From the NCBI GenBank assembly GCA_029939135.1, contig JAOZTP010000002.1, forward strand, positions 1 to 40,664: 40,664 bases of DNA, given 5' to 3'. The translations under genes were made by a program, and so were the position numbers. Source of the stretch: Desulfobacterales bacterium (GTDB lineage Bacteria; Desulfobacterota; Desulfobacteria; Desulfobacterales; JAFDMD01). How positions within the stretch are numbered: the first letter of the stretch is position 1; every line of letters begins with the position of its first letter. This document shows positions 19,388 through 37,483 of this stretch, in pieces. The notes beneath the pieces are model-generated. The model saw nothing but the letters and a program-made list of their open reading frames with translations, was not told where the DNA came from and made no database searches.

Positions 19388-21903
19388 ATGAAGATAAAAG
19401 GAATTTATTATTTTATCTTATTTATACTTATCGGAGCTGGCATTGCGGGAGCGAATGATTACTCAAACCCGATAACCCCAAGCCCAGTAACTACCCCGAT
19501 AACAATGACCAACGGAAGCGATAACTACACAAACACCATAATCGGCACAATTAATATTACTAGCGCACCCGGTATCGGTATAGATGCAAGCGCAAGCGCT
19601 GATACCGGCGACGATACTATTATAAACGCAGGAAATATTACAGTTTCAAGCGTAGGCGCAGGCATAGATTTTCACGAAGGCAACAACGCGCTTTATAATC
19701 AAGCTGTCGCCCGTATTAGTGTTACCTCTACCGCTTGCTGAACCGGGCATAATTTTTGGATCGGGCAACGATAACTTCACAAACTCAGGGTATGCTTCAG
19801 TTGCAAGCACAAGTGGTATCGGTATCGAAATGGGCGCTGGAGATGATAATATTACCAATTCCGGAACTTTGGATTCCAATAATACTATTGACGTCGGCGC
19901 TGGCAATGATAGTTTTATAAATGATGGAACTGTTACGGTTAACAGCGGCGCCCAACAGGGCATAAAATTAGGAGAAGGATACAACACATTTGAGAATAAA
20001 ACTTCCGGCATAATTAATATTAACTCTACTAATGATGGCATAACTTTTGGCGCGGACGACGATAGTTTTACAAATGATGGAAGTATTACAATTACGACAA
20101 CCGGAACAAACGCTATAGCAATGGGAGAAGGATACGATAACTTCACTACTTCCGGCGCGCTGAATTTTGATAAGCCTATTGACGGGGGAGCCGATACTGA
20201 CATTTTCACATTAAACGGAACTGCAATTCGATCCTTTGATCAGGACATTGTAAATTTTGAAACCATTAATAAAGAGGAATCCGGCTCTTGGGATTTAACC
20301 GGCGCAATAACCGGCGCAACGGCTATTAATATTAATAATGGCGAATTGCATCTTAACGGAACAATTACCGCGCCGATTAGCCTTGCAAGCGCGGGAGCTT
20401 TGGGAATTACAAGCCCCAATTCCATAGGGACTCTTAATTATGCCGGCAACTTTACTCAAAGTGCAGGGGGATTATTAATAGACGTAGATAACGAGAGCGC
20501 AGATTTATTCGCAATTACCGGAAATGCAAATATAACCAGCGGAACACTGATTGTTAATCCGCTGGCAAGCTATCTTGATTATGACTGGACGCAAAAAATA
20601 TTAGACGCCACAGGAATTCGCACAGGCGAGTTTGCTTCTATTCTTTCCACAAGCGCGCTATTTGAATTTGAAGGGGATTACACGGTAGCAAATGAAGTAT
20701 GGCTTAACAAAATTAACGTGCCATTGCTTACCGCTATGGAAAACGCCTCTACTCCGATAACCGCAAATAATATCTCTCAAGGAAACTATATTCAACAAGC
20801 TATAGAGGCGGGAGAAAGAAATTCTGTTAATTAACGCTTTAATCTCTTTATCTACCGCCGAAGACGTAATCAAAGCGATAGATACTCTTTCGCCGGAGAC
20901 TGTAGCCTCCGCCATTGGCGCAAGCCAACAGAATGTTTCAGCTCAAAATTTAAACGTATCTTCAAGATTGGGAATTCATCATAGATGGATAGGATACGGA
21001 ATGCCAAAATTGATCGCAGGTCTTGCATCCGACGCTTTCCCAATACTTTACGCAAATTCAAATCAGGCGGATACTCCGCTTAATTCCTTGTGGGTTAAAG
21101 GCATATACCTTAATTCTAAAAACGATGCGGACGACGGCAAGTTTGGATTTGAAACCGATACTCAAGGATTTAGCGTAGGTAAAGATTATTTAAAGAGCGT
21201 TTTACTTTACGGAGTTAGCGGAGGGTTTTCTCAATCTACAATAGATTATGACGATATTTCTTCCGAAGGGGAAATCGACACTTTAAATTTAAGCTTATAC
21301 GGCAGCTACGCTCCGGAAAGCTATTATATTGACGCAATATTATCATATTCAAACCATAATTATACAATGGAAAGAAAAATTTCTATTCTTAACGAAACCG
21401 CAACCGGCGATTACAGAGCGGACGAATATAGCGCTTCTCTTAAAGCGAGATATCCTATTAAATTAAACGCTTTTACATTTACTCCTATAGCCTCAGTTCA
21501 ATATTCGCATTATAAGCAAGATTCCTTTACCGAAACAGGCTCCTCCGCAGCCCTTGTTATAGAGGCGACAGATTCCAACTCCTTTATGACCGGGCTTGGG
21601 GCGTCAATAGGAAAAAGGTTTGATTACGGGCAATGGAAACATTTGCCTCATTTAAAGTTTATCTGGAAGCATGAATTATGCGATACCGCAGATAAGATTA
21701 AAGCAAGCTTTGCGGATTTAGGCGAATCTTACGGAACATTTGAAATAGAAGGCTACGATGCCGGCGCCGAAACCTATAATATAGGACTCGGACTGACCTC
21801 GTATAAAGGAAAAAAATTCTCCTTATTTTTGAATTACGATATAGACATAAAAGAGAACTATATTGCGAATTCGGTTACCGGAGGCTTAAAGTTTTACTTC
21901 TAA
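19388..21903 (+). pseudogene. Autotransporter (signal peptide, G-x-D-x-F/I-x-N-x-G repeat passenger, C-terminal beta-barrel) interrupted by two frameshifts
   Basis: The three track ORFs (19388-19741, 19719-20834, 20968-21903) lie in three different frames and read as one protein. The signal peptide is MKIKGIYYFILFILIGAGIAGA. Passenger repeats run across the first junction (GDDTIINAGNITV, GNDNFTNSG, GDDNITNSG, GNDSFINDG). The third frame is open back to ~20821 (ILLINALISLSTAEDVIKAIDTLSPE..), which is the typical linker before the barrel that ends ..GGLKFYF. Confidence 0.75.
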
Positions 21904-22050
21904 AAAAAGGCGTTGCATAATTTTGTAATTTGCTCAATTTCGGCTTTGAAAAAAGTTTTTAATCCTCGAAATACTACATGTATTCCTGCGGTTAAAAACT
22001 TTTTTCGCCTTGAACTTGAACAAACCACTTTGTTATATGCAACGCCTTTT
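21902..22050 (-). repeat. Family B element (full copy) starting at the autotransporter stop codon
   Basis: The outer arms are AAAAAAAGGCGTTGCATAA and TTATATGCAACGCCTTTT. The core is the reverse complement of the 16210 copy (AATCCTCGAAATACTACATGTATTCCTGCGGTT, TTCGCCTTGAA). Confidence 0.75.
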
Positions 22051-23229: not shown

Positions 23230-23293
23230 TTTATTTTTTTTGTTTGTTTTGCTCGTAATTTGTTTTGCTTTTTAAGCCTATACAATAAAATTA

Positions 23294-25513
23294 CTATGTA
23301 TTATTGAACATTTTATCATAGATTTCGCTTGACGCCTCCTCCTCCGCCTGTCTTTCATAAGATAAGGCAAAGTCTCGCATAGCCGCGGCAAATTTGAAAT
23401 ATCCTTGTTCGTCAAGTTGTTCCGCTTTTTTTCGATTCTTTTTAGCCAGCTCCAAAGTGTTTTTACCGCCGTCAGATATACAAACCCCTCTGCTATTGAA
23501 GAGTTGAGTAGTAAATCCTAATCTCATCTGTTCGGCGTCTTTATTGTTAAGCGCTTCGGCTACTACCGGATGAATCCAAAGGTTATTCGTAGCTATGGCA
23601 TTTATTAATACGCATCCTATTTGTAATAAAGCCATATTAAGATGCCCCGTATCTTTAGCGCTCTGTTTTACCTCTTTAAGCCAATTTTTAAAAGAGGCAG
23701 GGTCAAAAGATCCGTCCGGCTGTGTTCCGGGCGGAGTTTTCCATTCATCCAAAAGTTTATAAGCCTGTTCTGCCAGATTTTTCCGCTGTTCCGTAGGCTC
23801 TTTTTTATTCTCTTTTTCCTTTTCCGACAAAAATACCAACCCGATTAATTCGCAAAAAAACTTAGGGTCGGATGCAAGACGGTTTTCCAAAGTCTTAGGA
23901 GAGCCTTCCGAAAATTGATCTAACAGGTTAAGTAAATTCCATTCTATAATAAACAGATCATCAATATTAGCATGGGGAGATTTTTGAAGTTTTATAATAA
24001 GTTCAATGACTCTATGCTGATCTAACTCTTTTTGAGGATGTTTAGAATTAATAAGTCCCAAAAGGGCTTTTGTTGCAAGAGTTGTAAATTCGGCATTAAA
24101 ATCTTTCTTCTTATAGGTTACATGCCCTAAACACCGGATTGCCGCATTAGGGCGGTTATATTGAATAAATTTTTTAATACATTCGGTAAAATGCTGCTCA
24201 TCTTTTGACGGATAAAATGAACTATTTTGCCAGTATAACCCTTCGTCCGTTTTAAGATGTTTATTTGCGCGCATCCATGTTTCTTTTTCAAATGGAAGCA
24301 GAGTTAAAAATACGCTTTTTTGAGCAACGTTCCATTTATTTGTCAATAGATTATCCGCCCATTCCCATTTTTTCCCTTCTTTCCAAAATCTACTCCATAC
24401 AAAGCCTTTAATTAATTTTTTTTCAAATTCGTTTTTGCTTATTAAAAGCTTCGGAAGAATCTCTTTTTCAATGGAATTTGAAGCTATATTGCCAAGCGTA
24501 AATCCCACTTGAAATGGGTCGGAAACATTTAACGCAAAATTAAGCAGATATGATATTCCTCCCGTATCCAAAATTTTTGTCAAAGCATTTTCACGAATAT
24601 CTTCAAGACGCTTTTTTTGTTCTTCATAATTTCCTTTTTCGTCATATAAGTTATAATAACGCTCGCCAAAAAGATACCGATACCGTATATCCGGCGAATT
24701 TGGCGTTAGAGCGTCAGCCGCTTTTTCAATTTTAATAAGAACATTTTCAGACATTGCCCATTGCGCATCGGAAAACTTCCGGTATTTTCTAACTATATTA
24801 TTTAAAGTCTCCCAAATAGGCAGACGTTCTATTTCGGGCAGATTAATTATAGGTTCCGAAGTAAGATGATTTATAATCTTATCTCGGGCAGGATCGGATA
24901 GATCGGAAATGCGATTTATTAATTCATTAAGCTTTTTTCTATCCGACCGTGCAATTTTAACTGCCATTTCAGTATAAACAGTAATTTGCTCCCAATATTC
25001 ATTCGTAGTAACTATATTTTTCCAATCGGGCGAAATTAAGTCGCGCCAGATCGGACGACGGCATCCCGAAGTTGTTCCATGACTGCGCGGAAGTAATGTA
25101 AGCAGTAGTTTCCAACCGATTTTTGAATGTTCTTTTATCAAAGTTTCTATTGCCGCAATTCGCTTTTTCATATTAGCGCAGGTTTGAAGATGCCAAGGCA
25201 GCAAAATATCGGTTAAAGAATTTAGCGGGCGATTTGCCCAATTTCCGCCGGGGTCTATAGAAGCCAAATCTCCGAAGATAAGAATTACCCGAGTCAAATA
25301 GTCGGAATGCCAAGCAAGACCTTCTAATGCCCATAGCAAGCCGCTGATGTAATTCCTTCCGGCAATGCCATCGCTTGATTCTTGAGCAAAAATTTTATGA
25401 AACGGACTTTTTTCAATATCTATAAGAGCCGCTTCTACGGCTTTTAAAAACTCTTCGGGCGAGGCTTCCGCAATAAGCGGGAGTAATCGTTCTAAGCTTG
25501 CCATCTTTCCCAA
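23294..25513 (-). CDS. Orphan 739-aa all-helical (HEAT/ARM-like) protein, second gene of the overlapping pair
   Basis: Long uninterrupted ORF. The track start is TTG 25513; the alternative ATG 25504 still overlaps the upstream gene. The sequence is rich in Leu/Glu/Lys amphipathic helices and W-containing repeats. I recognised no catalytic motif. Confidence 0.6.
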   Translation of the reverse strand: MGKMASLERLLPLIAEASPEEFLKAVEAALIDIEKSPFHKIFAQESSDGIAGRNYISGLLWALEGLAWHSDYLTRVILIFGDLASIDPGGNWANRPLNSLTDILLPWHLQTCANMKKRIAAIETLIKEHSKIGWKLLLTLLPRSHGTTSGCRRPIWRDLISPDWKNIVTTNEYWEQITVYTEMAVKIARSDRKKLNELINRISDLSDPARDKIINHLTSEPIINLPEIERLPIWETLNNIVRKYRKFSDAQWAMSENVLIKIEKAADALTPNSPDIRYRYLFGERYYNLYDEKGNYEEQKKRLEDIRENALTKILDTGGISYLLNFALNVSDPFQVGFTLGNIASNSIEKEILPKLLISKNEFEKKLIKGFVWSRFWKEGKKWEWADNLLTNKWNVAQKSVFLTLLPFEKETWMRANKHLKTDEGLYWQNSSFYPSKDEQHFTECIKKFIQYNRPNAAIRCLGHVTYKKKDFNAEFTTLATKALLGLINSKHPQKELDQHRVIELIIKLQKSPHANIDDLFIIEWNLLNLLDQFSEGSPKTLENRLASDPKFFCELIGLVFLSEKEKENKKEPTEQRKNLAEQAYKLLDEWKTPPGTQPDGSFDPASFKNWLKEVKQSAKDTGHLNMALLQIGCVLINAIATNNLWIHPVVAEALNNKDAEQMRLGFTTQLFNSRGVCISDGGKNTLELAKKNRKKAEQLDEQGYFKFAAAMRDFALSYERQAEEEASSEIYDKMFNNT

Positions 25514-27108
25514 TCGGCATTATTAAGAATATTACGGACTATAAGATTTGCCGTTGTATTAGCTTTTTCATCAGAACAGGAAGATAAGGCTTTTGGTCTG
25601 CTTCCGATAAGAGCTAAAGTTTCCGCAATTCCTCCTCTGATTATTGAGGAATAGCTTAAAGTTTTTCCATGTATTACAGCCATATATCGCTCTTTTTTAG
25701 GAAGATCAAATTGAGGGTCGTATTCCCCCAAAACTTTTAAGGCGGTTTCTTTAAAACGTTCTAAATCTTTGTCAAATAATTGCGCCCCTAAATAATCCCA
25801 TGCTTCTTGGCGCGGTATTATTCGCCACTTTTCATTATATTGAATTAGGGGAGCGTCCGAGCGTAAAGTCTCGGCTCTAACTATCCCGATCCACTCCCCG
25901 TAACTTTTTCCCAATAAATGCTCCAAAGCGGCTATGTCGTCGGGATTATTGCCGTCCCATTGTCCGATTAATCCGGCTTCCGCAAGAAAACGGGCATTGT
26001 CGCGGTTAGCATAAGGCGGCGCCGTTCCAAGTCCTGCCATATATCTTCGCAATGCGGATAAAGAATGCGCTCCGATTGCCGCCATCTTTTCTGCTCGAAG
26101 TTCCGAAAAGTTTTTATTAAGCAAAATTTGTTTAATTGAATGTTTATCGGGGCTTCGCAGCCTTACAATTTTTTGATTTTCTACAGATAACCCGCCGAAT
26201 ATTGGTATTATAACCGAATGCCCTTTGTTTGTCGCGATTGTTTGAAAATCCATATTTTCCGAATCTAACCCCAGTTTGGGATTAGCAACCAATATATGCG
26301 ATTTAACGATTTCGGAAATCGAAAGCCATGTTTCTTTATCTTCAATGAATAAGCATTTATTGCTAAAGTAACGGCGTTTTTCATTATCAAGCGAGGCAAG
26401 ATAAGCTGAAACAAAATCTTTTACGTCCTTTCGGCTTTCGGCAAAAAAAGGCAATTTATTAGAGACGCCTTCGAGTAATTTCTGCAAAGCCGAGCAAGCA
26501 TCTTCTCTGCCGACCGTAAAAACTTCAGGCGGAATTGGCGGATCATCATCTTCTTTTTTTGGGGATTGAATTATTTCCCAGTGTTCTGCAGGCGTAAAAA
26601 ATCCTCCGATATTCTTTGAAATTCCTATTTTTTTTGCCATCCATCTTACTAATGCAGGAAACCCTCGCAGCCAATCTGCAAGTTTAACATCGTCAATAAT
26701 TTTGATCTCTCGCCATCCCTTATCTTTTCTTTTATCTATCCACTCTGTTTGCTTGGGAAATGAACGGGGAGTAACCAAAATAATAGAAGCATTAGCTTTA
26801 TCGGTTTCGGCAACCTGCTTTGTTCTTTTATTAAAGTCTTCGGCAAATTTTGCCTTTGGATTATTGCCTGTTCCGATCTCCCAATATGATCTGCCGTCCG
26901 GTACAAATTCGCGAAAGCCTTTATCGGTTTCTACTATTCCGTCCCATTCCGGTTTATTTATTGCCTCTCCATAAGGAATACGGCATGTAGAAGGGTTGGA
27001 TATTGACTGCCTTACCAATAAATAGATTAATTCAGGAATTACGGCTTGGCTCTCCCGCCCCGTTGCATAGTGATTGAGATCAACAGTATTTATTATTTGT
27101 GAATACAT
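25492..27108 (-). CDS. Orphan 538-aa protein with a possible PD-(D/E)xK-like nuclease N-domain and no P-loop
   Basis: The N-terminal ~135 aa contain ..AVIPELIYLLV..RIPYGEAINKPEWDGIVETDKGF..DGRSYWEIGTGNNPKAKFAEDFNKR.., then IILVTPRSFP...WREIKIIDDVKLADWLRGFPALVRWMAKKIG. There is no GxxxxGK[ST] anywhere. The stop overlaps the start of the next gene. Confidence 0.6.
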   Translation of the reverse strand: MYSQIINTVDLNHYATGRESQAVIPELIYLLVRQSISNPSTCRIPYGEAINKPEWDGIVETDKGFREFVPDGRSYWEIGTGNNPKAKFAEDFNKRTKQVAETDKANASIILVTPRSFPKQTEWIDKRKDKGWREIKIIDDVKLADWLRGFPALVRWMAKKIGISKNIGGFFTPAEHWEIIQSPKKEDDDPPIPPEVFTVGREDACSALQKLLEGVSNKLPFFAESRKDVKDFVSAYLASLDNEKRRYFSNKCLFIEDKETWLSISEIVKSHILVANPKLGLDSENMDFQTIATNKGHSVIIPIFGGLSVENQKIVRLRSPDKHSIKQILLNKNFSELRAEKMAAIGAHSLSALRRYMAGLGTAPPYANRDNARFLAEAGLIGQWDGNNPDDIAALEHLLGKSYGEWIGIVRAETLRSDAPLIQYNEKWRIIPRQEAWDYLGAQLFDKDLERFKETALKVLGEYDPQFDLPKKERYMAVIHGKTLSYSSIIRGGIAETLALIGSRPKALSSCSDEKANTTANLIVRNILNNADWERWQA

Positions 27109-27122
27109 TTTTTCAATTACTC

Positions 27123-27393
27123 CTATATAACACTAAATCTATAACTTTTTTTGCCGCCCATTTTGCATATTATATATAATGGTATCGGAGCTAAAATTCT
27201 GCTCTTTTGTCCATTTAATGCCATGATGATCAGGTTTAACAAGCTTAAAATATGATTTGTCTGCAAGCGCCTTAAAAGCCCGCCGTTTAAATACGGCTTT
27301 ACGTCAAAGATTCCGGGAATGCCTCCGCTTGTAATTATTTCAATTTTATAATCTTCAAGAGGAAGCGCTTTTATAATCTTATCAATTTTAATT
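27123..27393 (-). pseudogene. Start-less ~90-codon open frame immediately upstream of the orphan pair (possible 5'-truncated gene remnant)
   Basis: My translation is IKIDKIIKALPLEDYKIEIITSGGIPGIFDVKPYLNGGLLRRLQTNHILSLLNLIIMALNGQKSRILAPIPLYIICKMGGKKSYRFSVI*. There is no ATG/GTG and no RBS near the 5' end. It ends 14 nt before ATG 27108. Confidence 0.25.
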
Positions 27394-27579: not shown

Positions 27580-29847
27580 TTATTTTGCGGTCATCTCTTT
27601 TACTATGGTTAAGGTCTCTTTTGCGGCATCTTCAGGTTTATATGCAGTGTCCGAAATGCCGCTTACCACTCTTGCAATATCGTGATCCACTCCGTTTTTT
27701 GCCCATGTTTCGGCTGTTGGAGCGGCAATATAAACTGAATAATTATGGTGTCCGCTTCCGGGTCTTTCTCCTATTACGTGAAGGATGACTTTCGGTTTGT
27801 CAGTTCCCTGTTTTCCGTAAAGAAGGCTGCCGATTTTATACCCTGCTCGAACTCGTCCTGATTCTAATAATATATTTTTTTCGCTTATCGTATATCCGGC
27901 GGAAGCAAGCTCCTCTCTTACGGTTTGCAGGTATGGCAAAAGATGTCCTTCATCCATAAGCGCCCTTGCGTTTAGCCCGTCTGATATTACGATTTGAATA
28001 TCTGGCATACTGTTTTGCCACGATTTTCGCAATTTATACAACGCATTGATTGCGCCCGGAGATAGGGTTTCCCCTGTAGGAGGATGAGCAATGTAATCGC
28101 TTCGATTTTCCGAATTGGTAGAGATTACTAACGCGTTTGGAATTGTTTCAATAAATTGCGGCGTAAATGCGGCTTTAAGGGAAATTTTGGCGTCCTCGTA
28201 AAGCGCCCGAATTTTTTCTTTCAGCTCCGGATTTAATTCCCAAGGCTTGTTTCCGTAACCTCTTGCAATCGGAACGCCCCGGGCTTCAATTCTTTTAATT
28301 GCGGCTTCCCCTTCGGCATATATTTGCTCTTTGGAGCGTTTGTCTCCTTTTGCCAAAAGATATTGATAATAAACCCAAATAGGATCTCCGAAATGTTCGG
28401 TATATTTGTCGTTATTATCTACGATTTTAATTTTTTTAAAAAATTCCCACATTGCATCCGATACTTTATACCCGAATTTTTCTCTAATCCGAACATGATC
28501 TTGAAAACCTGTGGTAAGATAGCTTAACATCGGATCGTTTTTGGTTGGCAGCCCCATAAGATATGCGGGGTTTGCGGGCATTATTTGATCTATGCACCAA
28601 TCCAGATCGTCAAGGGTTACCGGCATATGAAGGGTAGAACATATATCTAATCCTAAACATAATCCGTGTAGTTTTCCTAATACTATATCTTCGAGGCAGC
28701 ATCGAACTAATTGCTCGCGGGTTTTAAATATTTCTGGTCCTATAAATCCCGCTACGTCATTTAAGTGATTCCAAACTTTGCCGTTATCAGATACTTTTTC
28801 AACCTCTTTTGTCAAAGCTCTTGCAAATCCGTATTTTCTGGATTCGTGAAGAACCATGTCGAAGCCGTTGCCTGCGCCGTTGGTAAAATCCGCCCCCTGC
28901 CCTGTTTCAAAATAAAGCCCGAATTTTGTCTTACGCATTTTTGCGTAATTTATCATTTTATCTATTGTAAGATCAAAGGTTTGGTTTGCCTGATCGCATC
29001 CCGCCAAACTCTGAAACCATAAAGCTGTTTGTCCGGGATATTGTTTTTCAACCTCCGCCTGTTTGTCTATATGGGCAAGAACGCACCAAGGCATAACTTG
29101 ATCTATGCCGAAGGTTGTTAAAACATCTTTAAGAATTTTTTCAATAGCCGCAATGTTTTCAACGGAATCGGAAACAGGATTTGTTCCGAGCGTCAAATCG
29201 CCGGTAGCGTAACTCCATCCGTTAAAAACCTGCCATATTATATCTTCCGGATTGTCCGTAGGCGAATTAGGTTGGATTCTCGCCCCAAGATACCCTTTTG
29301 CTCCGATTTTACTTCCGGGAAGCGGATTGAAAACTTTTTGCCCTACAATTATTAACTCTTGATTGGACATTAATTTGACTACGCATCCGATTGCGTCGCT
29401 GTTTAAGCCGTCCATTATGCCTTTAATATCCGATTCCGACTTTGCAAGCAGAAAATTTTTAATTTCTTGCAATGTTTTTTCTTTGATTTTGTTATATTGA
29501 GAGGCATCTGTGGTTTTCCAGATTAATTCTTGAAGATTATCTTTAAATAATGGATTATTATGAATATCTTTTATTTTTGTATTGGATAAAAGGATTCTGG
29601 CGTTTGAGCGGGAAATTTCATTTGCAGCGGCAAGCCCTAAAGCTTGGTCGCCTTCTTTAAACTCGTTTGCCGCTCCTACTATTTTTTGATAAAGGGTTTG
29701 ATCAAAGCTCCCTTGAATTCTTCTGATATATTGGAATATATTTTCGTTTGGATTGATAGATTCAATTGTAACCGCGCTTGCCTCGGTTCCAACCGCGCAA
29801 AACAGGATACATGCAATAACAATAAAAAAACGTTTTATCAGTCTCAT
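27580..29847 (-). CDS. eutBC: Ethanolamine ammonia-lyase, fused large (EutB) and small (EutC) subunits with an N-terminal signal/anchor peptide
   Basis: EutB motifs are ARIQPNSPTD, GTNPVSDSVENI, LYFETGQGADF, GFIGPE and CLEDI. The EutC-like C-terminus has IVISDGLNARAL...VILHVIGERPGSG. The N-terminus is MRLIKRFFIVIACILFCAVGTEASA, about 50 aa ahead of where E. coli EutB aligns. Confidence 0.8.
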   Translation of the reverse strand: MRLIKRFFIVIACILFCAVGTEASAVTIESINPNENIFQYIRRIQGSFDQTLYQKIVGAANEFKEGDQALGLAAANEISRSNARILLSNTKIKDIHNNPLFKDNLQELIWKTTDASQYNKIKEKTLQEIKNFLLAKSESDIKGIMDGLNSDAIGCVVKLMSNQELIIVGQKVFNPLPGSKIGAKGYLGARIQPNSPTDNPEDIIWQVFNGWSYATGDLTLGTNPVSDSVENIAAIEKILKDVLTTFGIDQVMPWCVLAHIDKQAEVEKQYPGQTALWFQSLAGCDQANQTFDLTIDKMINYAKMRKTKFGLYFETGQGADFTNGAGNGFDMVLHESRKYGFARALTKEVEKVSDNGKVWNHLNDVAGFIGPEIFKTREQLVRCCLEDIVLGKLHGLCLGLDICSTLHMPVTLDDLDWCIDQIMPANPAYLMGLPTKNDPMLSYLTTGFQDHVRIREKFGYKVSDAMWEFFKKIKIVDNNDKYTEHFGDPIWVYYQYLLAKGDKRSKEQIYAEGEAAIKRIEARGVPIARGYGNKPWELNPELKEKIRALYEDAKISLKAAFTPQFIETIPNALVISTNSENRSDYIAHPPTGETLSPGAINALYKLRKSWQNSMPDIQIVISDGLNARALMDEGHLLPYLQTVREELASAGYTISEKNILLESGRVRAGYKIGSLLYGKQGTDKPKVILHVIGERPGSGHHNYSVYIAAPTAETWAKNGVDHDIARVVSGISDTAYKPEDAAKETLTIVKEMTAK

Positions 29848-30234: not shown

Positions 30235-30447
30235 AATTTAGGCGGATAACTTCGTAGTTTGCCCTATTTCTACGTTGGATAAACTTTTTTGTTATGCGCC
30301 GAGATTTAAGCATTTTTTTTGTTTAAATATTTTTTAATAATGGCGGTTTACAGTTTTCTTTTTTCAAGTAGTTTCTTCGTTTGCAAGGCGAAAAAAAATT
30401 TTCAACGCCGCAAACATGCAAAATACGCAGTTATCCGCCCAAATTTT
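30235..30447 (+). repeat. Family B composite (inverted right-arm copy plus short copy) abutting the stop of the DUF294 gene
   Basis: The left part AATTTAGGCGGATAACTTCGTAGTTTGCCCTATTTCTACGTTGGATAAA is the inverted image of the right part TTTCAACGCCGCAAACATGCAAAATACGCAGTTATCCGCCCAAATT. The TAA stop (30446-30448) directly follows. Confidence 0.65.
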
Positions 30448-32770
30448 ATATGCCCATAAACTTCAAGCTAGAATCATCTTGAAACCTTTCTATTTTTTTA
30501 AATATCTCTTTTAATAATTTTCTTTCGAGACGGGACAAATCATTAGGATTAATATGATTATCAGGGGCTTTTTTCTCATAAATTATAGCTTTTACCTGCC
30601 GAACAAATCTAAGTTGCATCATAAAATCGTAAGATTGATCTATATCTTTATAATCCTGACGGGATAATACCTTTTTATCATATATTTTATTAAGTCTTTC
30701 GTGAGTATTGGTTTCCCAAATTGAATTTTGCAAAGCGTATATTCGGGCAAAATCGACTACCGGTATCATAGCGCTCTTTATATCAAAAGAATTTTTATGT
30801 TCCCCTTTTGATTCAAGCTTAAACTGTCTGAAAAGATTAAGAGGCGGCTTAAAATATAAAGCGTTTTCGGCAAGGCGTCTAAAAAAACCGGACCAGTTTT
30901 TTAAAGAATCAAACAAAAAAAATTTTAGCTCCTTTATAAGTTCGCCGTCTCCGCTGCCTTTTCTAAAATCAAAAAATATACTGGCGTAAAGAAGGTCTTC
31001 AGGAGACGCTTCATATATCCAAGAATTAAAATAGTTTTTCCATTGAGAAATAGAAGCGCATAATTTAGGATTTTTTGCCATAATGTTTCCCTTACAAAAG
31101 GCATAACCCGCTTTATCAAGCATATTGCATACTTTTTTTCCCATCTTTAAAAAATATTCTTTAACCTGTTTTTCGTCGCTTTTGGGAACATCTTCAAATA
31201 TTATGGCGTTATCCTGATCCGTTTTTAAGGTCTGCTCATATCTTCCTTCGCTTCCCATGATCATAAATACAAATTTTACCGGAGGCTCTCCTATATCCTT
31301 TATTGTAAATTCAATAAGCTTATCTAATATGGAGCCGCTTATGGCTGAAACAAACTTTGTAATATGTTTTGCCTTTGCTCCTTTGCTTATAAAATCATGA
31401 ATTGTTCTTGGCAGCCTGTTATAAATTTTCGCTATTTGCGTTACAGTATCGGCTTTTGAAATATTCTCTATAAATAAAAACGGGGATTTGCTTCGGGCGG
31501 TTAGCATATCTTTATGAGTGGCTATGCCAGCTATTTTTCCGTCCGTATCGCTTATGACGATATGTCTTTTATTACCCTGCATACTTTTTAAAATAGCCTC
31601 GAAAATAAAGGAATGCTCAGACACGCTTACAAGAGGAGAAGACATTATGGAGGACGCGGGCATTAAGAAATCGTATCCTGCGGCTACTACTTTATTTCTT
31701 AAATCCGTATCTGTTATTATGCCTATAAACTCCTGTTTATTGTTTCTAATTAGTATGGAACCGGAGTTTTTATTTTTCATTATAGATGCGGCTTTTTGAA
31801 TGGAATCTTCCGTTTCGCAAAATATAAGGTTTCTATTGCATATATTGCCGATGGTATTATGAAACGCTCCCAGACCGTCCGCTTCCGCTCCCACGCTTCC
31901 GTCAATTAATGAATAGTAAGATTTTTTTAAAATTTTTTCCCCAAAAGTATCGGTAAAATAGTCTGTTATGATAGAAAACTTATCGCAAAGGTTTAAAAAA
32001 TGTTCGCGCGCAAGCTTGTAAAAAGAGGCGTTTTCTTTGATTTTTATACTTTCAAAAGCTATCCCTTTATTTGCAAGTATAGAATAGCCGCCGAAGATAT
32101 CCCCTTTTTCCATAATTTTTTCATTTTTATTATTATCTTCTATCCTCCCCCTTGTCGCCAAACCGCTTCTTAATATATAGATATGCTCTATTTTTGATTC
32201 GTTTTGGGTAAATAATAAAACGTTTTTAGGAAAACTTACTACAGATAACATTAAAGCGGTTTTATTTATATCCTCTTTCCGCATAAAAGAAAAAGGGGCG
32301 GTATTTGCAAGCATTCTTTTTGCATTATCCGTCTTTACAACCGAAGCGTAATGTTTGTTTTGCATTCTGGCGTCGTAGCTATCTACAAAATATTCATAAA
32401 AGGAATCGTATCCGGCGCAAAGTTCCAAAAACTTTTTTTGGGATATTATATATAAAACGGTATCTTTACTCGCGCGGACATTGCGCGGCATTATGCCGGA
32501 ATTCATCAGTATCGAAATTCCGCCAAGTATATCCTTTTCTTTAAGGTAAGCCGCCGTATTTTTTTCTCCCTCTTTTCCGAAATCAAGCTCCAACTCCCCC
32601 TCTTTTATTATATACGCCCCTTTTGTTTTGCTTATCCCCCGCTCAAAAATCATTGATCCGGAGATATATTTTTCTTCCATTACTGATTTGGAAATATTTT
32701 CGACCTCTTTTTTCGGTATCGAAACAAAAGGTTCTAAATCAGATAAAAACTCTGCAATTTCCTTTTTCAT
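30446..32770 (-). CDS. 2x cNMP-binding / 2x CBS / DUF294 putative nucleotidyltransferase
   Basis: 774 aa. It has two CAP-effector-like domains (IFERG..AYIIKEGELEL and GDIFGG..) and a CBS pair (IIGIITDTDL.., IAGIATHKDML). The polymerase-beta-type NTase motif is MGSEGRYEQTLKTDQDNAIIF, followed by a DUF294_C-like tail. Confidence 0.8.
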   Translation of the reverse strand: MKKEIAEFLSDLEPFVSIPKKEVENISKSVMEEKYISGSMIFERGISKTKGAYIIKEGELELDFGKEGEKNTAAYLKEKDILGGISILMNSGIMPRNVRASKDTVLYIISQKKFLELCAGYDSFYEYFVDSYDARMQNKHYASVVKTDNAKRMLANTAPFSFMRKEDINKTALMLSVVSFPKNVLLFTQNESKIEHIYILRSGLATRGRIEDNNKNEKIMEKGDIFGGYSILANKGIAFESIKIKENASFYKLAREHFLNLCDKFSIITDYFTDTFGEKILKKSYYSLIDGSVGAEADGLGAFHNTIGNICNRNLIFCETEDSIQKAASIMKNKNSGSILIRNNKQEFIGIITDTDLRNKVVAAGYDFLMPASSIMSSPLVSVSEHSFIFEAILKSMQGNKRHIVISDTDGKIAGIATHKDMLTARSKSPFLFIENISKADTVTQIAKIYNRLPRTIHDFISKGAKAKHITKFVSAISGSILDKLIEFTIKDIGEPPVKFVFMIMGSEGRYEQTLKTDQDNAIIFEDVPKSDEKQVKEYFLKMGKKVCNMLDKAGYAFCKGNIMAKNPKLCASISQWKNYFNSWIYEASPEDLLYASIFFDFRKGSGDGELIKELKFFLFDSLKNWSGFFRRLAENALYFKPPLNLFRQFKLESKGEHKNSFDIKSAMIPVVDFARIYALQNSIWETNTHERLNKIYDKKVLSRQDYKDIDQSYDFMMQLRFVRQVKAIIYEKKAPDNHINPNDLSRLERKLLKEIFKKIERFQDDSSLKFMGI

Positions 32771-33021
32771 AATTTTAATTATCTCCCGATGTTGTATTGT
32801 TATATTTGCAATTCGGTTGCATGAATTTCCCCTTTGTATCCCCGCTTGTATGTTGGGTTGCGCGCAGCGAAATTCAAATTTTTTTTACATCTCGGCATAT
32901 TAATTATAAATTTAAATTCCTCCAGATAACAAACCGGTTCCTTTCAGTTTAAGGCAGATAAAATCTTTATCCAACGCTAAAACCAGACAAAACACAAAGT
33001 TAATCGCAAAAAACAATATCT

Positions 33022-33164
33022 AAATTTGGGCGGATAACAAAGTGGTTTGTTTGTTTGCAAGACGGATCAACTTTTTAACCGCAGGAATACTAATGTATTT
33101 CGAAGATTAAAAATTTTATCCAACGCCGCAAACAGGCAAACTACGCAGTTATCCGCCCAAATTT
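33022..33164 (+). repeat. Family B element (full copy) abutting the stop of the exonuclease gene
   Basis: The outer arms AAATTTGGGCGGATAAC (33022-33038) and GTTATCCGCCCAAATTT (33148-33164) form a perfect 17-bp inverted repeat. The core matches the 16210 and 21902 copies. The TAA stop is at 33165-33167. Confidence 0.8.
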
Positions 33165-35120
33165 TTAATATTTTAGCTTAGAATATAGAGTCTTTTTGGA
33201 CGCCTCTATGGCGTCTTTTAAAGTAAAAATATTCTTTTTCTCAAGCATCGGAATCAGTTTTAAAAATATCTCCGCAGCAGCCAAAGCGTCTCCTGACGCC
33301 GTATGACGCCCTTTTATTTCAACTCCCGCAAGTTGAGCTATACTTTTTAAATCATGCCTTTGATGGGCGGGATAAACCGCCGAAGCCAAAATCATAGTAT
33401 CAAGAACCGGATTATCAAACTTTACTTTTGTATCCTTTTCTTTTACTTGCAGCAGCTTCATATCAAACCCTGCGTTATGAGCTAATAAAACCGTATCTTC
33501 GGCAAAATTATAAAAACTATGTAAAACCTTTTTAATAGTCGGCTTATCTTTTACCATAGAGCAGTTTATTCCATGAATCTTCTCTGCTTCCCAAGGTATT
33601 CGGATTCCAGGGTTTACTAATTCTTCAAATTTTTCTTTAGAAAGTAATTTATTATCCACAATTCTAACCGCCGCTATTGAGATGATCTCGTCCGTTTGGG
33701 TATTAAGCCCTGTAGTTTCCGTATCAAATACGGTATAAGCAAGGTCTTTAAGAAGGTAATCGTTTAAGCGCTGATGCTTAAAATGCTTTGTAAGAAGATC
33801 AAAATTGTAAAACTCCTGTTTTTCGTCTGTAATATCAATGCTTTGTATGGTTTCAGGATCTCCTATTTCAACTATCGGCATAAAAAGTTTAAGATATGTT
33901 CTGTTTAAAATACATGAAGAATCGATTGTAAGAATTCCTTCGTTATAATCTATAATTTCGGATAAAGTTATTAATATTTTTTTATTGTCCGCAGTTAATA
34001 CAGGCTGATTTAAGCTTGAAATAACCGTTTTTGCGGTTTCGTCGTCCGAAAGAATAAATAAAACCGCAAGCATATTTTTTTCTCTTGCAATCTTGCAATG
34101 AAAAAAATCCAAGCCTGTTTTTTCGCGAAATTTAATAACAATAAAAAGAAGCGCTAATATAAAGGAGTAGCTTTCCACCTTAATCCAGTTTGACTTTTCG
34201 GAAAATTCGGTGGTAATTTCCACGTCAAGTTGCTCTTTTGCTCTTTTACGAAACGTCGCCATAATATCTCTGTCCGAAACAGTAATAAGAGGCATTCTTT
34301 TTTTCATGTAACCGAGATAACCGTCTTCGGATTCAATCGCCTTTTTAACCAAAGCAATTTCCGCCGTCATGTCGTATAAAAAAAGAATAAATCCTATATA
34401 TTCTTTATTATTGCCCGTTATAGGGGAGGCTTGAACCTTTATAAGCTTTTGACTGTCGGTTACCATAAAAAAGGAGGATGATGCCTCAATATTATCTTTG
34501 TTTTGCCAAATGTTCGCTTCATAAAGGGCATGGTCCGTCAACTCCTTATCTATAATGCCAAAAATTGATCTTCCTATACCTATAAAATGGCTTTTGCTTT
34601 CTATGATCTTTGCCTCTTTATTAAAAAGAATTATCTTGCCTTCGGCGTTACAGGCAAGCGCTCCGTAAGGAAGTTGTTCCATAAAAGAGGCGAGAATATT
34701 TTTTTCGTTTTCCACAGCGGCTTTTGCTTCTTCTATTTCTAAGCTTACGTCCGTTTTTAATTTATCATATTCGTCCGCCATCTCGTTTATAAGGCGCGCC
34801 AAATTAAATACGGATTTTCCGCCTTCGGTTTTTATTCTATGAGACGGGTTAGAACTGATGATTAAGGCGGTTTCGTCCATAATTTTATTTAAAGGAATAA
34901 AAAAAATATTTAATAACGCATCCGCTACAAAACCGATGCCTCCGCAAAAAAATAAAAAGCAGATAAACAGATAACCGCCGTTCTCTTTTATAATTTTTAA
35001 AAGAAAACGCTGATCGTTTAAATCAAGCTTATTCCAAAACAGAAGCGATATAAGCAGAAAAAAAACAACGGTAACCGCTATGGATAATAAGGTAAAATAT
35101 AAGAATTTATTTTTTTTCAT
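33165..35120 (-). CDS. Membrane-anchored sensor (2 TM, HAMP/PAS-like) fused to a DnaQ-like DEDDh 3'-5' exonuclease
   Basis: Two N-terminal TM helices are followed by a coiled-coil and a PAS-like segment (FMEQLPYGALACNAEGKIILFNKEA). The exonuclease motifs are YTVFDTETTGL (ExoI), LLAHNAGFDMKLL (ExoII) and HTASGDALAAAEIF (ExoIII, H-type). Confidence 0.8.
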   Translation of the reverse strand: MKKNKFLYFTLLSIAVTVVFFLLISLLFWNKLDLNDQRFLLKIIKENGGYLFICFLFFCGGIGFVADALLNIFFIPLNKIMDETALIISSNPSHRIKTEGGKSVFNLARLINEMADEYDKLKTDVSLEIEEAKAAVENEKNILASFMEQLPYGALACNAEGKIILFNKEAKIIESKSHFIGIGRSIFGIIDKELTDHALYEANIWQNKDNIEASSSFFMVTDSQKLIKVQASPITGNNKEYIGFILFLYDMTAEIALVKKAIESEDGYLGYMKKRMPLITVSDRDIMATFRKRAKEQLDVEITTEFSEKSNWIKVESYSFILALLFIVIKFREKTGLDFFHCKIAREKNMLAVLFILSDDETAKTVISSLNQPVLTADNKKILITLSEIIDYNEGILTIDSSCILNRTYLKLFMPIVEIGDPETIQSIDITDEKQEFYNFDLLTKHFKHQRLNDYLLKDLAYTVFDTETTGLNTQTDEIISIAAVRIVDNKLLSKEKFEELVNPGIRIPWEAEKIHGINCSMVKDKPTIKKVLHSFYNFAEDTVLLAHNAGFDMKLLQVKEKDTKVKFDNPVLDTMILASAVYPAHQRHDLKSIAQLAGVEIKGRHTASGDALAAAEIFLKLIPMLEKKNIFTLKDAIEASKKTLYSKLKY

Positions 35121-35188
35121 ATCTTTATATTTGCCGTTATAAATTTTTTTTTAACCTTGCTCCTCAAAATAACAGGGTAAAAATAAGA

Positions 35189-35218
35189 GGCTGCCTTGTC
35201 AAATAAATCAAGAAATCC
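35189..35218. repeat. Family A half-site in the exonuclease/acs divergent region
   Basis: GGCTGCCTTGTCAAATAAATCAAGAAATCC. Confidence 0.45.
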
Positions 35219-35434
35219 TTTAATTGTTTTTCGGAATTATTTGCGGCTTTATTTTATGATGCCGCATAAAAAATATTGACTTGCATATAATAAATAAGCT
35301 ACATTCATTAAAAGTGTCAATACATAAAAATTATAGTAGGTTTTAGATAACATCCGCATAAATGCAAAGGTTGTTAATCGTAAAATTAAAATTGACGGCA
35401 AAACGTCTTAAAACCAGCGAAAGGAGAGGTAAAT

Positions 35435-37483
35435 ATGGCCAAGAATAAAACAGTTGATCAAAAAAATGTCGGAGGTTCAGAAAGTTCGATAGCAGTTCAT
35501 TGGCAGGAGGAAAAATATTTATATGCTTCGCCCGGATTTATAGGGCAGGCAAATCTTACGGACGAAACAATATTCGAGCGCTTTAGTCTTGATAATTTTC
35601 CAGATTATTTTACCGAATATGCAGATCTTTTAACATGGTATAAAGGTTGGGATACCGTTTTGGATACCAGCGATGCTCCATGTTGGAAGTGGTTTAAAGG
35701 CGGACTTATTAACGCTAGCTACAATTGTATAGACCGTCATCTTAAAGATAATAAAAACAAGACCGCAATTCATTATGTTCCGGAGCCTGAAAATGAAAAA
35801 ATCGAGCATATTACATATCAGGAGTTATATGTTCGAGTAAATGAATTTACGGCTCTTTTACGAGATTCTGCAGGGCTTAAAAGAGGCGACAGAGTAACTA
35901 TTCATATGCCAATGTCCGCGGAACTTCCGATAACTATGCTTGCCTGCGCAAGACTTGGAGTAATACACTCCGTAGTATTCGGCGGTTTTTCCGCAAGCGC
36001 TTGCGCAGACAGAATAATAGATTCTAACAGCCGAGTTTTAATAACAATGGACTCATATTACAGATCCGGAACGCTTCTTAATCATAAAAAAAGCGCTGAC
36101 GAAGCCGTTGAAATAGCAAAAAAAGGCGGACAAACAGTAGATACGGTATTGGTATGGGAGCGTTACCCTGGCAAATATTCTTCCGAAACTCCTATAGTCA
36201 AAGGCAGAGACTGCATTGTAAACGAGGAGCTTACAAAATATTACGGCGTAAGAGTAGAACCGGAAAAAATGCTTGCCGAAGATCCCCTATTTTTAATGTA
36301 CACAAGCGGAACTACCGGCAAACCAAAAGGATGCCAGCACGGAACCGGCGGTTATCTTTCTTACGTTGCCGGAACCGCAAAATATATTCAGGATATTCAT
36401 CCAGAAGATGTTTATTGGTGTATGGCGGATATCGGATGGATTACGGGACATTCTTATATAGTATATGGTCCCCTTTCATTAGGCGCTTCTACGGTAATAT
36501 ATGAAGGCGTTCCTACATATCCGGATGCAGGGCGTTCTTGGAGAATAGCTCAAGAACTTGACGTAAACATATTCCATACCGCTCCTACGGCAATACGAGC
36601 TTTAAGAAAAATAGGTCCGGACGAACCGGCAAAATACAATTATAATTTCAAACATATGACTACCGTAGGCGAGCCTATAGAGCCGGAAGTATGGAAATGG
36701 TATCATAAAGTCGTAGGAAAAGGAAAAGCCGTAGTTGTAGATACTTGGTGGCAAACCGAAACCGGAGGCTTTTTATGTAGCACGGTTCCGGCGTTACAAC
36801 CGATGAAACCGGGCAGCGCAGGCCCCGCGGTTCCGGGTATTCATCCGGTTATTTATGACGAAGACGGAAACGATATTCCGGCAGGCGCTGGCAAAGCAGG
36901 CAATATCTGTATAAGCAATCCGTGGCCTGGAGGCTTCCAAACAATTTGGGGCGATAGAGACAGGTTTGTAACAAATTATTATACGAGATACTGCAAAGAC
37001 CCTAACAGTAAAGATTGGAGAGATTGGCCTTATTTAACCGGCGACGCGGCTATGCAGGCGGAAGACGGATATTATAGAATTTTAGGCAGAATCGACGACG
37101 TTATTAACGTATCCGGTCATAGACTCGGAACAAAAGAGTTAGAATCCGCCGCTCTTACGGTGGGGGAAGTAGCCGAAGCCGCTGTTGTTCCTGTAGCTCA
37201 CGAAATAAAAGGAAAAGAACCAGATTTATACGTCGCATTAAAACCGGGCATAGCGGCTACCGAGGAGCTTGCAAAAAAGATTTCGGACGCAATATGTAAT
37301 AAAATCGGAAAAATTGCAAAACCGCGCAAAGTATGGCTTGTGCCCGATATGCCTAAAACCCGTTCCGGCAAAATTATGAGAAGAGTTTTAGCAGCAATTT
37401 CAAACAAAGGGGACGTAGGCAACGTTATGACTTTGGCAAACCCGGAAATAGTTGACGCTATAAAGAGGCAGGTTCAAAAATAA
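35435..37483 (+). CDS. acs: Acetyl-CoA synthetase (acetate--CoA ligase, AMP-forming)
   Basis: 682 aa with LMYTSGTTGKPKG, YWCMADIGWITGHSY, DTWWQTETGG, YLTGDAA and PKTRSGKIMRR. The RBS is AAAGGAGAGG. Confidence 0.95.
   Translation: MAKNKTVDQKNVGGSESSIAVHWQEEKYLYASPGFIGQANLTDETIFERFSLDNFPDYFTEYADLLTWYKGWDTVLDTSDAPCWKWFKGGLINASYNCIDRHLKDNKNKTAIHYVPEPENEKIEHITYQELYVRVNEFTALLRDSAGLKRGDRVTIHMPMSAELPITMLACARLGVIHSVVFGGFSASACADRIIDSNSRVLITMDSYYRSGTLLNHKKSADEAVEIAKKGGQTVDTVLVWERYPGKYSSETPIVKGRDCIVNEELTKYYGVRVEPEKMLAEDPLFLMYTSGTTGKPKGCQHGTGGYLSYVAGTAKYIQDIHPEDVYWCMADIGWITGHSYIVYGPLSLGASTVIYEGVPTYPDAGRSWRIAQELDVNIFHTAPTAIRALRKIGPDEPAKYNYNFKHMTTVGEPIEPEVWKWYHKVVGKGKAVVVDTWWQTETGGFLCSTVPALQPMKPGSAGPAVPGIHPVIYDEDGNDIPAGAGKAGNICISNPWPGGFQTIWGDRDRFVTNYYTRYCKDPNSKDWRDWPYLTGDAAMQAEDGYYRILGRIDDVINVSGHRLGTKELESAALTVGEVAEAAVVPVAHEIKGKEPDLYVALKPGIAATEELAKKISDAICNKIGKIAKPRKVWLVPDMPKTRSGKIMRRVLAAISNKGDVGNVMTLANPEIVDAIKRQVQK

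Follow-up and report, generated by a model that had tools for sequence, protein, structure and literature searches.

A disrupted gene of a Desulfobacterales bacterium as a probable member of a large, P-loop-less, Avs8/Avs4-like sensor-nuclease family with a predicted defence role

The DNA analyzed here is a stretch of 40,664 nucleotides (nt) from a Desulfobacterales bacterium (contig JAOZTP010000002.1, hereafter the window), whose host is a low-GC member of the Desulfobacterota. The minus-strand locus at 23294-27108 probably represents a disrupted copy of a large family of Avs8/Avs4-like sensor-nucleases that have no P-loop and a predicted role in defence. An original prediction, made from the letters of the window, had described the locus as two orphan, translationally coupled genes forming an undescribed two-component system. 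The features of the locus are listed below, where aa stands for amino acids, P0002 is the closest relative of the protein, L167 is a locus from a ~89%-identical relative, phrog_18693 is a protein profile from PHROGs v4 and AF2 is AlphaFold2.

23291..27166, minus strand: accessory cassette, full extent (blastn/tblastn synteny, junction alignments and Pfam matches of the L167 genes)
27109..27166, minus strand: cassette-specific 5' leader with the Shine-Dalgarno sequence AGGAG at 27124-27120; L167 homology stops at ~27167
25492..27108, minus strand: N-terminal half of the disrupted gene, 538 codons, premature TAG at 25494-25492; 59% identity to P0002 residues 3-543; phrog_18693 positions 4-489
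26614..27108, minus strand: putative N-terminal nuclease-like effector domain, aa 1-165 (AF2 secondary structure; conservation in 132 diverse sequences; weak PD-Lambda-4_A (Avs8A) matches fall here)
25729..26541, minus strand: STAND/AAA+-like module, aa ~190-460, without a P-loop (Foldseek matches in the PDB and BFVD; motif scans)
25501..25502, minus strand: frameshift site, one G of a GGG run absent (tblastn frame switch; sequence; family consensus WxRWASL)
23294..25513, minus strand: C-terminal half of the disrupted gene, alpha-solenoid, 739 codons from TTG 25513, ATG at 25504; 62% identity to P0002 residues 542-1267 (AF2; Foldseek)

One gene split by a single-nucleotide deletion

The two open reading frames (ORFs) were reproduced from the sequence at the predicted coordinates, ORF1 (538 aa) at 25492-27108 and ORF2 (739 aa, read from TTG 25513) at 23294-25513, overlapping by 22 nt, or by 13 nt counted from ATG 25504. 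Neither is a chance ORF, since each has hundreds of strong homologues. On sequence grounds, they are the N- and C-terminal halves of one gene of ~1271 aa. The 1258-position profile phrog_18693, which is of unknown function and carries no annotation, was matched co-linearly by ORF1 (positions 4-489, E 1.2e-36) and ORF2 (positions 524-1245, E 1.9e-90), and the window protein is a direct member of it. Nearly all of the best 120 database relatives of ORF2 were single proteins of 1264-1283 aa, and a single ORF of at least 1200 aa was present in 76 of 84 homologous loci.

In a tblastn search with P0002 (1269 aa), residues 3-543 aligned in one frame (59% identity) and residues 542-1267 in another (62%), and the switch from frame +1 to frame +3 was located exactly between ...ADWERW and (A)SLERLLPL. 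The DNA at this junction reads gat tgg gaa aga tGG Caa gct tag, while the intact relatives imply aga tgg gca agc (R-W-A-S). When one G was restored (tgg gca agc), the family consensus W-x-R-W-A-S-L was regained; the lesion is therefore a 1-nt deletion in the GGG run at 25501-25502. The coupled gene pair was thus not borne out, as the homologues are single proteins of ~1270 aa rather than two co-occurring genes and the overlap arises from the deletion. The alternative offered in the original prediction, one gene of ~1270 aa broken by a frameshift, proved to be correct.

A genuine coupled system, with a nuclease/NOD (nucleotide-binding oligomerization domain) subunit and a separate solenoid sensor subunit, is very improbable. 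Re-initiation would be physically plausible, as ATG 25504 lies 10 nt upstream of the ORF1 stop behind a purine-rich stretch, and the break is near the domain boundary at which the bridge region meets the solenoid. However, the single absent base accounts exactly for the ORF arrangement, and the single-ORF state of the loci and database relatives argues against two subunits. Internal breaks were found in ~6% of the copies in other genomes at scattered other positions, leaving N-terminal pieces of ~156 to ~1090 aa, and the lengths of database fragments were scattered as well. The junction itself is not conserved. Programmed -1 ribosomal frameshifting was considered and rejected, because the site (G GAA AGA TGG CAA) is not a slippery heptamer and the relatives are in-frame.

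N-terminal nuclease-like domain

The N-terminal half was modelled with AF2 from a 44-sequence alignment (predicted local distance difference test score, pLDDT, 84; predicted template modelling score, pTM, 0.74). Residues 1-165 displayed an alpha-beta-beta-beta-alpha-beta topology, with helices at 20-35 and 84-98 and strands at 41-43, 58-61, 72-78 and 107-112. This predicted order of elements is compatible with the PD-(D/E)xK core fold, and the Foldseek match of the whole model to Avs4 is co-linear. In the model D56 precedes strand 2, E77 ends strand 3 and K87 starts the following helix.

Residue conservation was analyzed in a diverse set of 131 full-length members whose identity to the window protein is 25-53%, and counts are given out of 132 sequences. 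Within the N-terminal domain D56 (131), E77 (130) and K87 (127) were near-invariant, together with T113, D139 and W146. The N-terminal motifs quoted in the original prediction are present in ORF1, and its proposal of a nuclease-like module was supported by the conservation of D56, E77 and K87; it failed for E26 (52) and E60 (53), which are not conserved. The N-terminal domain was the most conserved part of the protein (12% of columns at least 90% conserved), followed by the first solenoid segment (10%); the core resembling a nucleotide-binding domain (NBD) was the least conserved (3%). Because the lysine is not at the canonical +2 position, the domain may at best be a permuted PD-(D/E)xK variant.

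Pfam searches at E<=10 with 38 diverse members returned helix-turn-helix (HTH) matches only and no STAND match, and searches of PDB sequences with a narrow and a broad profile found nothing. Alignment of the domain by hhalign with HsdR N-terminal nuclease profiles from the family loci gave probabilities below 1%, these profiles being thin.

The N-terminus is modular. An XRE-type HTH is added at the N-terminus in 8 of the 38 diverse members (about a fifth), and D56, E77 and K87 are near-invariant in this HTH-bearing branch too. In P0269 the N-terminal domain is replaced by Metallophos (PF00149, a calcineurin-type metallophosphoesterase; Pfam E 2e-8). Other N-termini were found in P0293 and in WP_014620926.1 of Shewanella baltica OS117; they have an E..D..QxK look by eye only, and phmmer searches with them against the PDB found nothing. 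Homology of WP_014620926.1 to the family begins only at about residue 367 (41% identity over 899 aa), and this protein therefore lacks the NBD-like core. Its gene, with a different N-terminus of 287 aa, is located on a conjugative plasmid of S. baltica OS117 (L179, 2346-7703) directly after genes for an Abi family protein and superinfection-exclusion protein B. Such exchange of the N-terminal module is what an effector position would be expected to show.

STAND-like module and solenoid

In the AF2 model, an alpha/beta core opens the segment of residues ~190-460, and behind it come a helical bundle and a unit resembling a winged helix. A Foldseek search of the PDB with the N-terminal 538 aa matched Avs4 (8dgf, E 7e-7), MalT, EfAvs5, Apaf-1, CED-4 and many AAA+ proteins of the RFC/ORC/Cdc6 type, and a search of BFVD returned RFC, AAA+ and NLR-type (nucleotide-binding, leucine-rich repeat) proteins. 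Motif scans detected no Walker A in the reconstructed window protein, and Walker A was absent from the expected strand-helix junction in all 109 close members. A motif of this type occurred anywhere in the first 800 aa in only 2 of the 131 diverse members. The expected place is occupied by LPFFAESRKDVKDFVSAYL in the window protein, and the family consensus there is L-x-h-x-[AT]-x-[ST]-P-[ED]-[ED]-h-h-D-F-V-A-A. No acidic pair is conserved on the Walker-B-like strand, where the residues vary (E/S and D/T/S). An F-x-x-G-R motif with an Arg conserved in at least 95% of the sequences (R201) precedes the NBD-like core; it may correspond to the hhGRExE signature of STAND proteins, which it resembles. 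The proposal of a STAND/AAA-type region without Walker A is thus supported by the fold matches and the motif scans.

The C-terminal half (AF2, pLDDT 86) is entirely helical, and residues ~546-1271 form an alpha-solenoid of ~730 aa of the HEAT/ARM type. Its Foldseek matches included transportin-3, importin-13, exportins, SF3B1 and PP2A-A, in agreement with the predicted all-helical-repeat protein, and the solenoid carries many invariant Trp and charged residues. The AF2 and Foldseek results together give the tripartite single-chain layout of Avs/NLR-like proteins, with an N-terminal effector, a NOD (NBD, helical domain and winged-helix domain) and a C-terminal helical sensor; the P-loop NTPase motifs of these proteins, a Walker A GxxxxGK[ST] and a Walker B acidic pair, are absent. 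The modelled protein follows the overall body plan of NLR/Avs proteins.

Family size and distribution

An exhaustive profile search of 1.84 billion representative proteins, clustered at 50% identity, detected 6065 clusters at E<=1e-3 and 3507 at E<=1e-30. Together with 486 matches among word-prefiltered candidates, these clusters show that the label of orphan genes was wrong. The best 150 profile matches were mostly 1250-1420 aa long. A group of 700-850 aa that had looked like a short subfamily was rejected as such, as its proteins proved to be truncated and to come from divergent branches of full-length proteins. Among 185,579 species genomes, a pattern scan yielded 240 confirmed copies, spread over more than 15 bacterial phyla and two archaea (Nitrosopumilales and Methanotrichaceae). 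The close subfamily has a mean column identity of 68% across phyla, and this conservation implies horizontal transfer.

The family was found on 24 plasmids, 11 of them conjugative. Sequenced phage genomes are essentially without it, with one weak partial match in 50,697 records. On the Buttiauxella plasmid pBTX_57 (L177, 2567-7667), a 922-aa copy lacks the N-terminal third, and a reverse transcriptase of a group II intron is encoded upstream of it, suggesting that the insertion of an intron disrupted this copy.

Members are named "hypothetical protein" or "helix-turn-helix transcriptional regulator" in RefSeq. Pfam, NCBIfam and PADLOC scans of the two halves of the window protein gave no credible match, and literature searches found no prior description. 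The family has no Pfam or NCBIfam model and no name.

Genomic neighbourhood in relatives

Clustering of 1167 ORFs from the 84 loci revealed no conserved partner gene or conserved upstream element. The commonest neighbours encoded HsdM, HsdS, HsdR, type IIG Eco57I-like enzymes, AlbA_2, YgjP and DUF1016. Restriction-modification (R-M) genes were present within 10 kb in 23 of the 84 loci, often co-oriented and directly adjacent. In L026, L070 and L076 the family gene lies between hsdS and hsdR, and in L010, L019, L022 and L025 it directly follows a type IIG enzyme gene. Other neighbours included an AriA/Gabija-like AAA_15 ATPase, UvrD, a Prok-E2/ThiF/JAB protein, AbiEi/AbiEii, an Abi family protein, SieB, insertion sequence elements and parAB, the last adjoining one copy on a conjugative plasmid. 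The patchy distribution, the variable neighbourhoods rich in defence and mobile genes, and the presence/absence polymorphism against L167 are those of an accessory gene.

Comparison with known immune systems

In a PADLOC scan of the 38 diverse members, 11 weakly matched PD-Lambda-4_A (best E 5.6e-8) and three matched a second PD-Lambda-4_A model, while the remaining matches were explained by the HTH extension; PD-Lambda-4_A is thus the only PADLOC family matched outside the HTH extensions. The matches are co-linear, at residues ~95-175; in P0198, residues 93-171 aligned with positions 98-175 of the 1283-position profile, inside or next to the Mrr region of Avs8A. PD-lambda-4A, since renamed Avs8A, has a mass of ~143 kDa and combines an Mrr nuclease with a P-loop NTPase and a C-terminus of tandem repeats; once bound to major capsid proteins of the HK97 fold, it degrades DNA (bioRxiv 10.1101/2025.07.02.662641). 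Similar to the family in size and layout, Avs8 (E. coli ECOR07 WP_000963924.1) is a single chain of ~1280 aa with an N-terminal Mrr-type nuclease, a central STAND and a long repeat-like sensor. A 2026 census of STAND proteins reported degenerate Walker motifs in KpAvs8, "suggesting a lack of ATPase activity", and found some Avs sensors in proteins without a STAND domain (PMC13581612). KpAvs8 is a validated Avs8 member, and its degenerate motifs are a further likeness to the P-loop-less family (PMC13581612). However, EcAvs8A has a P-loop, which is missing in essentially every family member; Avs8 is described as a two-gene operon (A + B), whereas the family has no conserved partner; and the sequence similarity to Avs8A is marginal. 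Because of the weak PD-Lambda-4_A matches and the degenerate Walker motifs of KpAvs8, the family looks like a distant Avs8 relative of the same size and layout that may have lost the P-loop throughout.

In structure, the N-terminal 538 aa matched best Avs4 (PDB 8dgf), a portal-sensing protein with an Mrr-like nuclease, a STAND and a tetratricopeptide repeat (TPR) sensor, with E 7e-7 over 613 aligned columns and a TM-score of only 0.26. Avs4 shares the tripartite logic of effector, NOD and helical sensor, but no sequence similarity between the two was detectable. Avs4 needs ATP binding and has the Walker A/B motifs that the family lacks, and its sensor is TPR-like, whereas that of the family is a karyopherin-like solenoid.

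DSR2 functions without nucleotide hydrolysis. DSR2/Dsr1 resemble the family in combining an N-terminal effector and a large alpha-helical repeat sensor in a single chain, but their effector is an NADase (SIR2) and not nuclease-like, and a STAND-like remnant is lacking in them. The top 50 Foldseek matches of the C-terminal half did not include DSR2. Dsr1 likewise operates without nucleotide hydrolysis, so that sensor-effector immunity independent of nucleoside triphosphate (NTP) exists (PMC13581612).

Genes of the PrrC/RloC type are embedded in type I R-M operons, and in a subset of its loci the family gene likewise has hsdS (or hsdM) on one side and hsdR on the other, all co-oriented. However, PrrC consists of an ABC-type ATPase and an anticodon nuclease and is unrelated to the family protein, and the family is R-M-linked in only about a quarter of its loci and not in the window.

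Proposed mechanism and alternative explanations

By analogy with Avs4 and Avs8, the solenoid may bind an invader-derived ligand, most likely a conserved phage protein fold. Ligand binding would relieve autoinhibition, and the STAND-like module would then serve as a nucleotide-independent oligomerization hinge. Oligomerization would gather the N-terminal nuclease domains, which could degrade DNA and abort infection. Several observations weigh against a sensor-nuclease with a defence role. There is no canonical (D/E)xK, as E77 is followed by I-G and the conserved K87 comes 10 residues later on the next helix, and the N-terminal domain has no Pfam, PDB-sequence or hhalign link to any nuclease family. 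The Foldseek TM-scores are low (0.2-0.3). The PD-Lambda-4_A matches are weak and occur in 29% of the diverse members, with none for the window protein, and that of P0198 covers only ~80 residues. The solenoid is unusually conserved for a sensor in an arms race. About 70% of the loci have no recognizable defence neighbour in what was a coarse analysis, and in the window no R-M or other classical defence gene lies next to the cassette.

Some of these points would also fit a mobile-element regulator or scaffold, that is, a MalT-like, STAND-derived transcription or DNA-transaction factor whose N-terminal domain binds nucleic acid and does not cleave it. We regard this as unlikely. It would agree with the XRE-type HTH of the 8 members noted above and the corresponding RefSeq name, with MalT among the top structural matches, with the strong conservation of the solenoid, with the copy beside parAB and with the non-canonical active-site geometry. 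However, the D56, E77 and K87 positions are kept in the HTH-bearing branch, a Metallophos hydrolase takes the place of the N-terminal domain in P0269, the gene occurs inside R-M operons and in Abi/Sie/AbiE neighbourhoods, and some members have weak Avs8A homology. HTH fusions, moreover, are frequent in defence proteins, where they serve autoregulation.

The adjacency to R-M genes raises another explanation, in which the protein would be a PrrC-like guard of R-M, silent while bound to a type I or type IIG complex and firing when a phage anti-restriction protein disables that complex. In many of the 23 R-M-linked loci the gene directly adjoins R-M genes of the same orientation, and a conserved host or anti-restriction ligand would fit the high conservation of the solenoid. 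However, no R-M system adjoins the gene in 61 of the 84 loci, on the plasmids or in the window, nothing connects the solenoid to Hsd subunits, and R-M operons are general landing pads for defence genes; a guard role is thus improbable.

The sensor-nuclease with a defence role remains the preferred explanation. A more far-reaching form of it, which we consider possible at best, is that the family is a clade of STAND-derived receptors (at least 6000 clusters in many phyla) permanently without nucleotide binding, in which the NOD-like module would persist only as a ligand-gated oligomerization hinge joining a permuted Mrr-like nuclease to an unusually conserved solenoid, the latter sensing an invariant feature of the invader or the state of an R-M complex.

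The accessory cassette and its lesion

The predicted flanking genes, fdhD and a fused eutBC, were confirmed on either side of the locus, as was the eutBC terminator upstream of the cassette, at 27556-27525 on the minus strand. The start-less gene remnant reported upstream is real and is a DUF2442 pseudogene (27139-27386, minus strand) directly upstream of the family gene. Its intact counterpart in L167 encodes 77 aa; relative to it, the window copy has ATT in place of the start ATG at 27386-27384 and has lost one G from a GGGG run (27279-27281). The DUF4160 partner gene of DUF2442 (L167, 7431-7700) is absent from the window.

The gene order is eutBC, DUF2442 pseudogene, family gene and fdhD in the window, and eutBC, DUF4160, DUF2442, Peptidase_C92 and fdhD in L167, which has no family gene at this locus according to blastn/tblastn synteny. 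In the junction alignments, homology between the two stops ~58 nt upstream of the ATG of the family gene and restarts directly after its stop codon. Since L167 homology breaks off and resumes around the gene, the family gene can be regarded as accessory, a cassette occupying a variable site between eutBC and fdhD. The inserted accessory module of the original prediction is supported by this synteny and by the defence context in other genomes. In the position of the family gene, L167 carries a 137-aa Peptidase_C92 gene (7991-8404; YaeF/YiiX permuted papain-like amidase). Because of this replacement the eutBC-fdhD interval is, judging by gene content, a cargo-swapping hotspot. Cassette-flanking repeats were considered as a sign of a mobile unit and rejected, as the repeats found near fdhD and eutBC (66 nt and 48 nt) are members of dispersed intergenic families (~10 sites in the window) and do not border the gene.

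The family gene of the window is somewhat more probably inactivated than mis-assembled. If the lesion is genuine, ribosomes that stop at TAG 25494-25492 could restart at ATG 25504 and yield two separate chains, by accident and not by design. An assembly or sequencing error at a short homopolymer, with the gene intact and functional in the organism, is a substantial possibility that falls somewhat short of an even chance. It would agree with the loss of one base in a G-run, with the otherwise undamaged state of both halves, which align end to end with their relatives at 59-62% identity with few gaps, and with the like loss of a G in the neighbouring DUF2442 gene. However, the nearby breaks are located in accessory genes (the family gene, DUF2442 and apparently an autotransporter), while housekeeping ORFs of 650-820 aa are unbroken. 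The start substitution of DUF2442 and the loss of its DUF4160 partner are not explicable by homopolymer errors, and the broken copies in other genomes also argue for a real lesion. The autotransporter (19388-21903, plus strand) is apparently in three ORFs, of 117 aa with a signal peptide, 371 aa (passenger) and 311 aa (PF03797 beta-domain starting at TTG), which apparently implies two further frameshifts in an accessory gene.

Other features of the window

The fused EutB-EutC ethanolamine ammonia-lyase (27580-29847, minus strand, 755 aa) has a hydrophobic, signal-peptide-like N-terminus (MRLIKRFFIVIACILFCAVGTEASA), an unusual feature in a cytoplasmic B12 enzyme. Both this N-terminus and the fusion itself are kept in L167, and similar fused proteins were found in metagenome-assembled genomes of Bacteroidota.

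At least three families of dispersed intergenic repeats of 45-100 nt, direct and inverted, occur in the window (for example TTGTCGAGCAAAGCGAGAAATCCTTTTATTGTTTTT and TTCAACGCCGCAAACAGGCAAACTACGCAGTTATCCGCCCAAA). They are located at ~6.1, 11.4, 16.1-16.3, 19.0, 21.9-22.4, 30.0-30.4, 33.0-33.2, 35.2, 37.7, 38.1-38.4 and 39.4 kb. Some form hairpins (21948-22006), and another copy lies upstream of eutBC in L167. An Rfam scan of the whole window gave no matches, these repeats included. They may be REP-like (repetitive extragenic palindromic) or MITE-like (miniature inverted-repeat transposable) elements.

At 30446-37483, an acetyl-CoA synthetase is accompanied by a nucleotidyltransferase of 774 aa (cNMP-binding/CBS/DUF294) and by a protein of 651 aa that ends in an RNase_T/DnaQ-like exonuclease domain. 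The arrangement may be a regulatory module for acetate metabolism.

Implications

The finding in the window is reduced from an undescribed two-gene system to one broken accessory gene. At the same time, thousands of unannotated proteins gain a testable identity, and the RefSeq label "helix-turn-helix transcriptional regulator" is misleading. Intact copies are available from hosts that can be grown in culture, for example on Shewanella baltica plasmids and in Desulfitobacterium, Acetobacterium, Cupriavidus metallidurans CH34 and Rhizobium. If the proposed role were confirmed, defence-annotation tools would gain a widespread family. If the possible clade of receptors without nucleotide binding were real, existing defence-finder models would be missing it, and it would be the first demonstrated case of an entire NLR-type lineage that signals without an NTP switch. 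The NLR/Avs body plan appears to persist across many phyla with no P-loop, a state so far noted only for single members such as KpAvs8, and confirmation would reveal the extent to which STAND signalling depends on the nucleotide switch.

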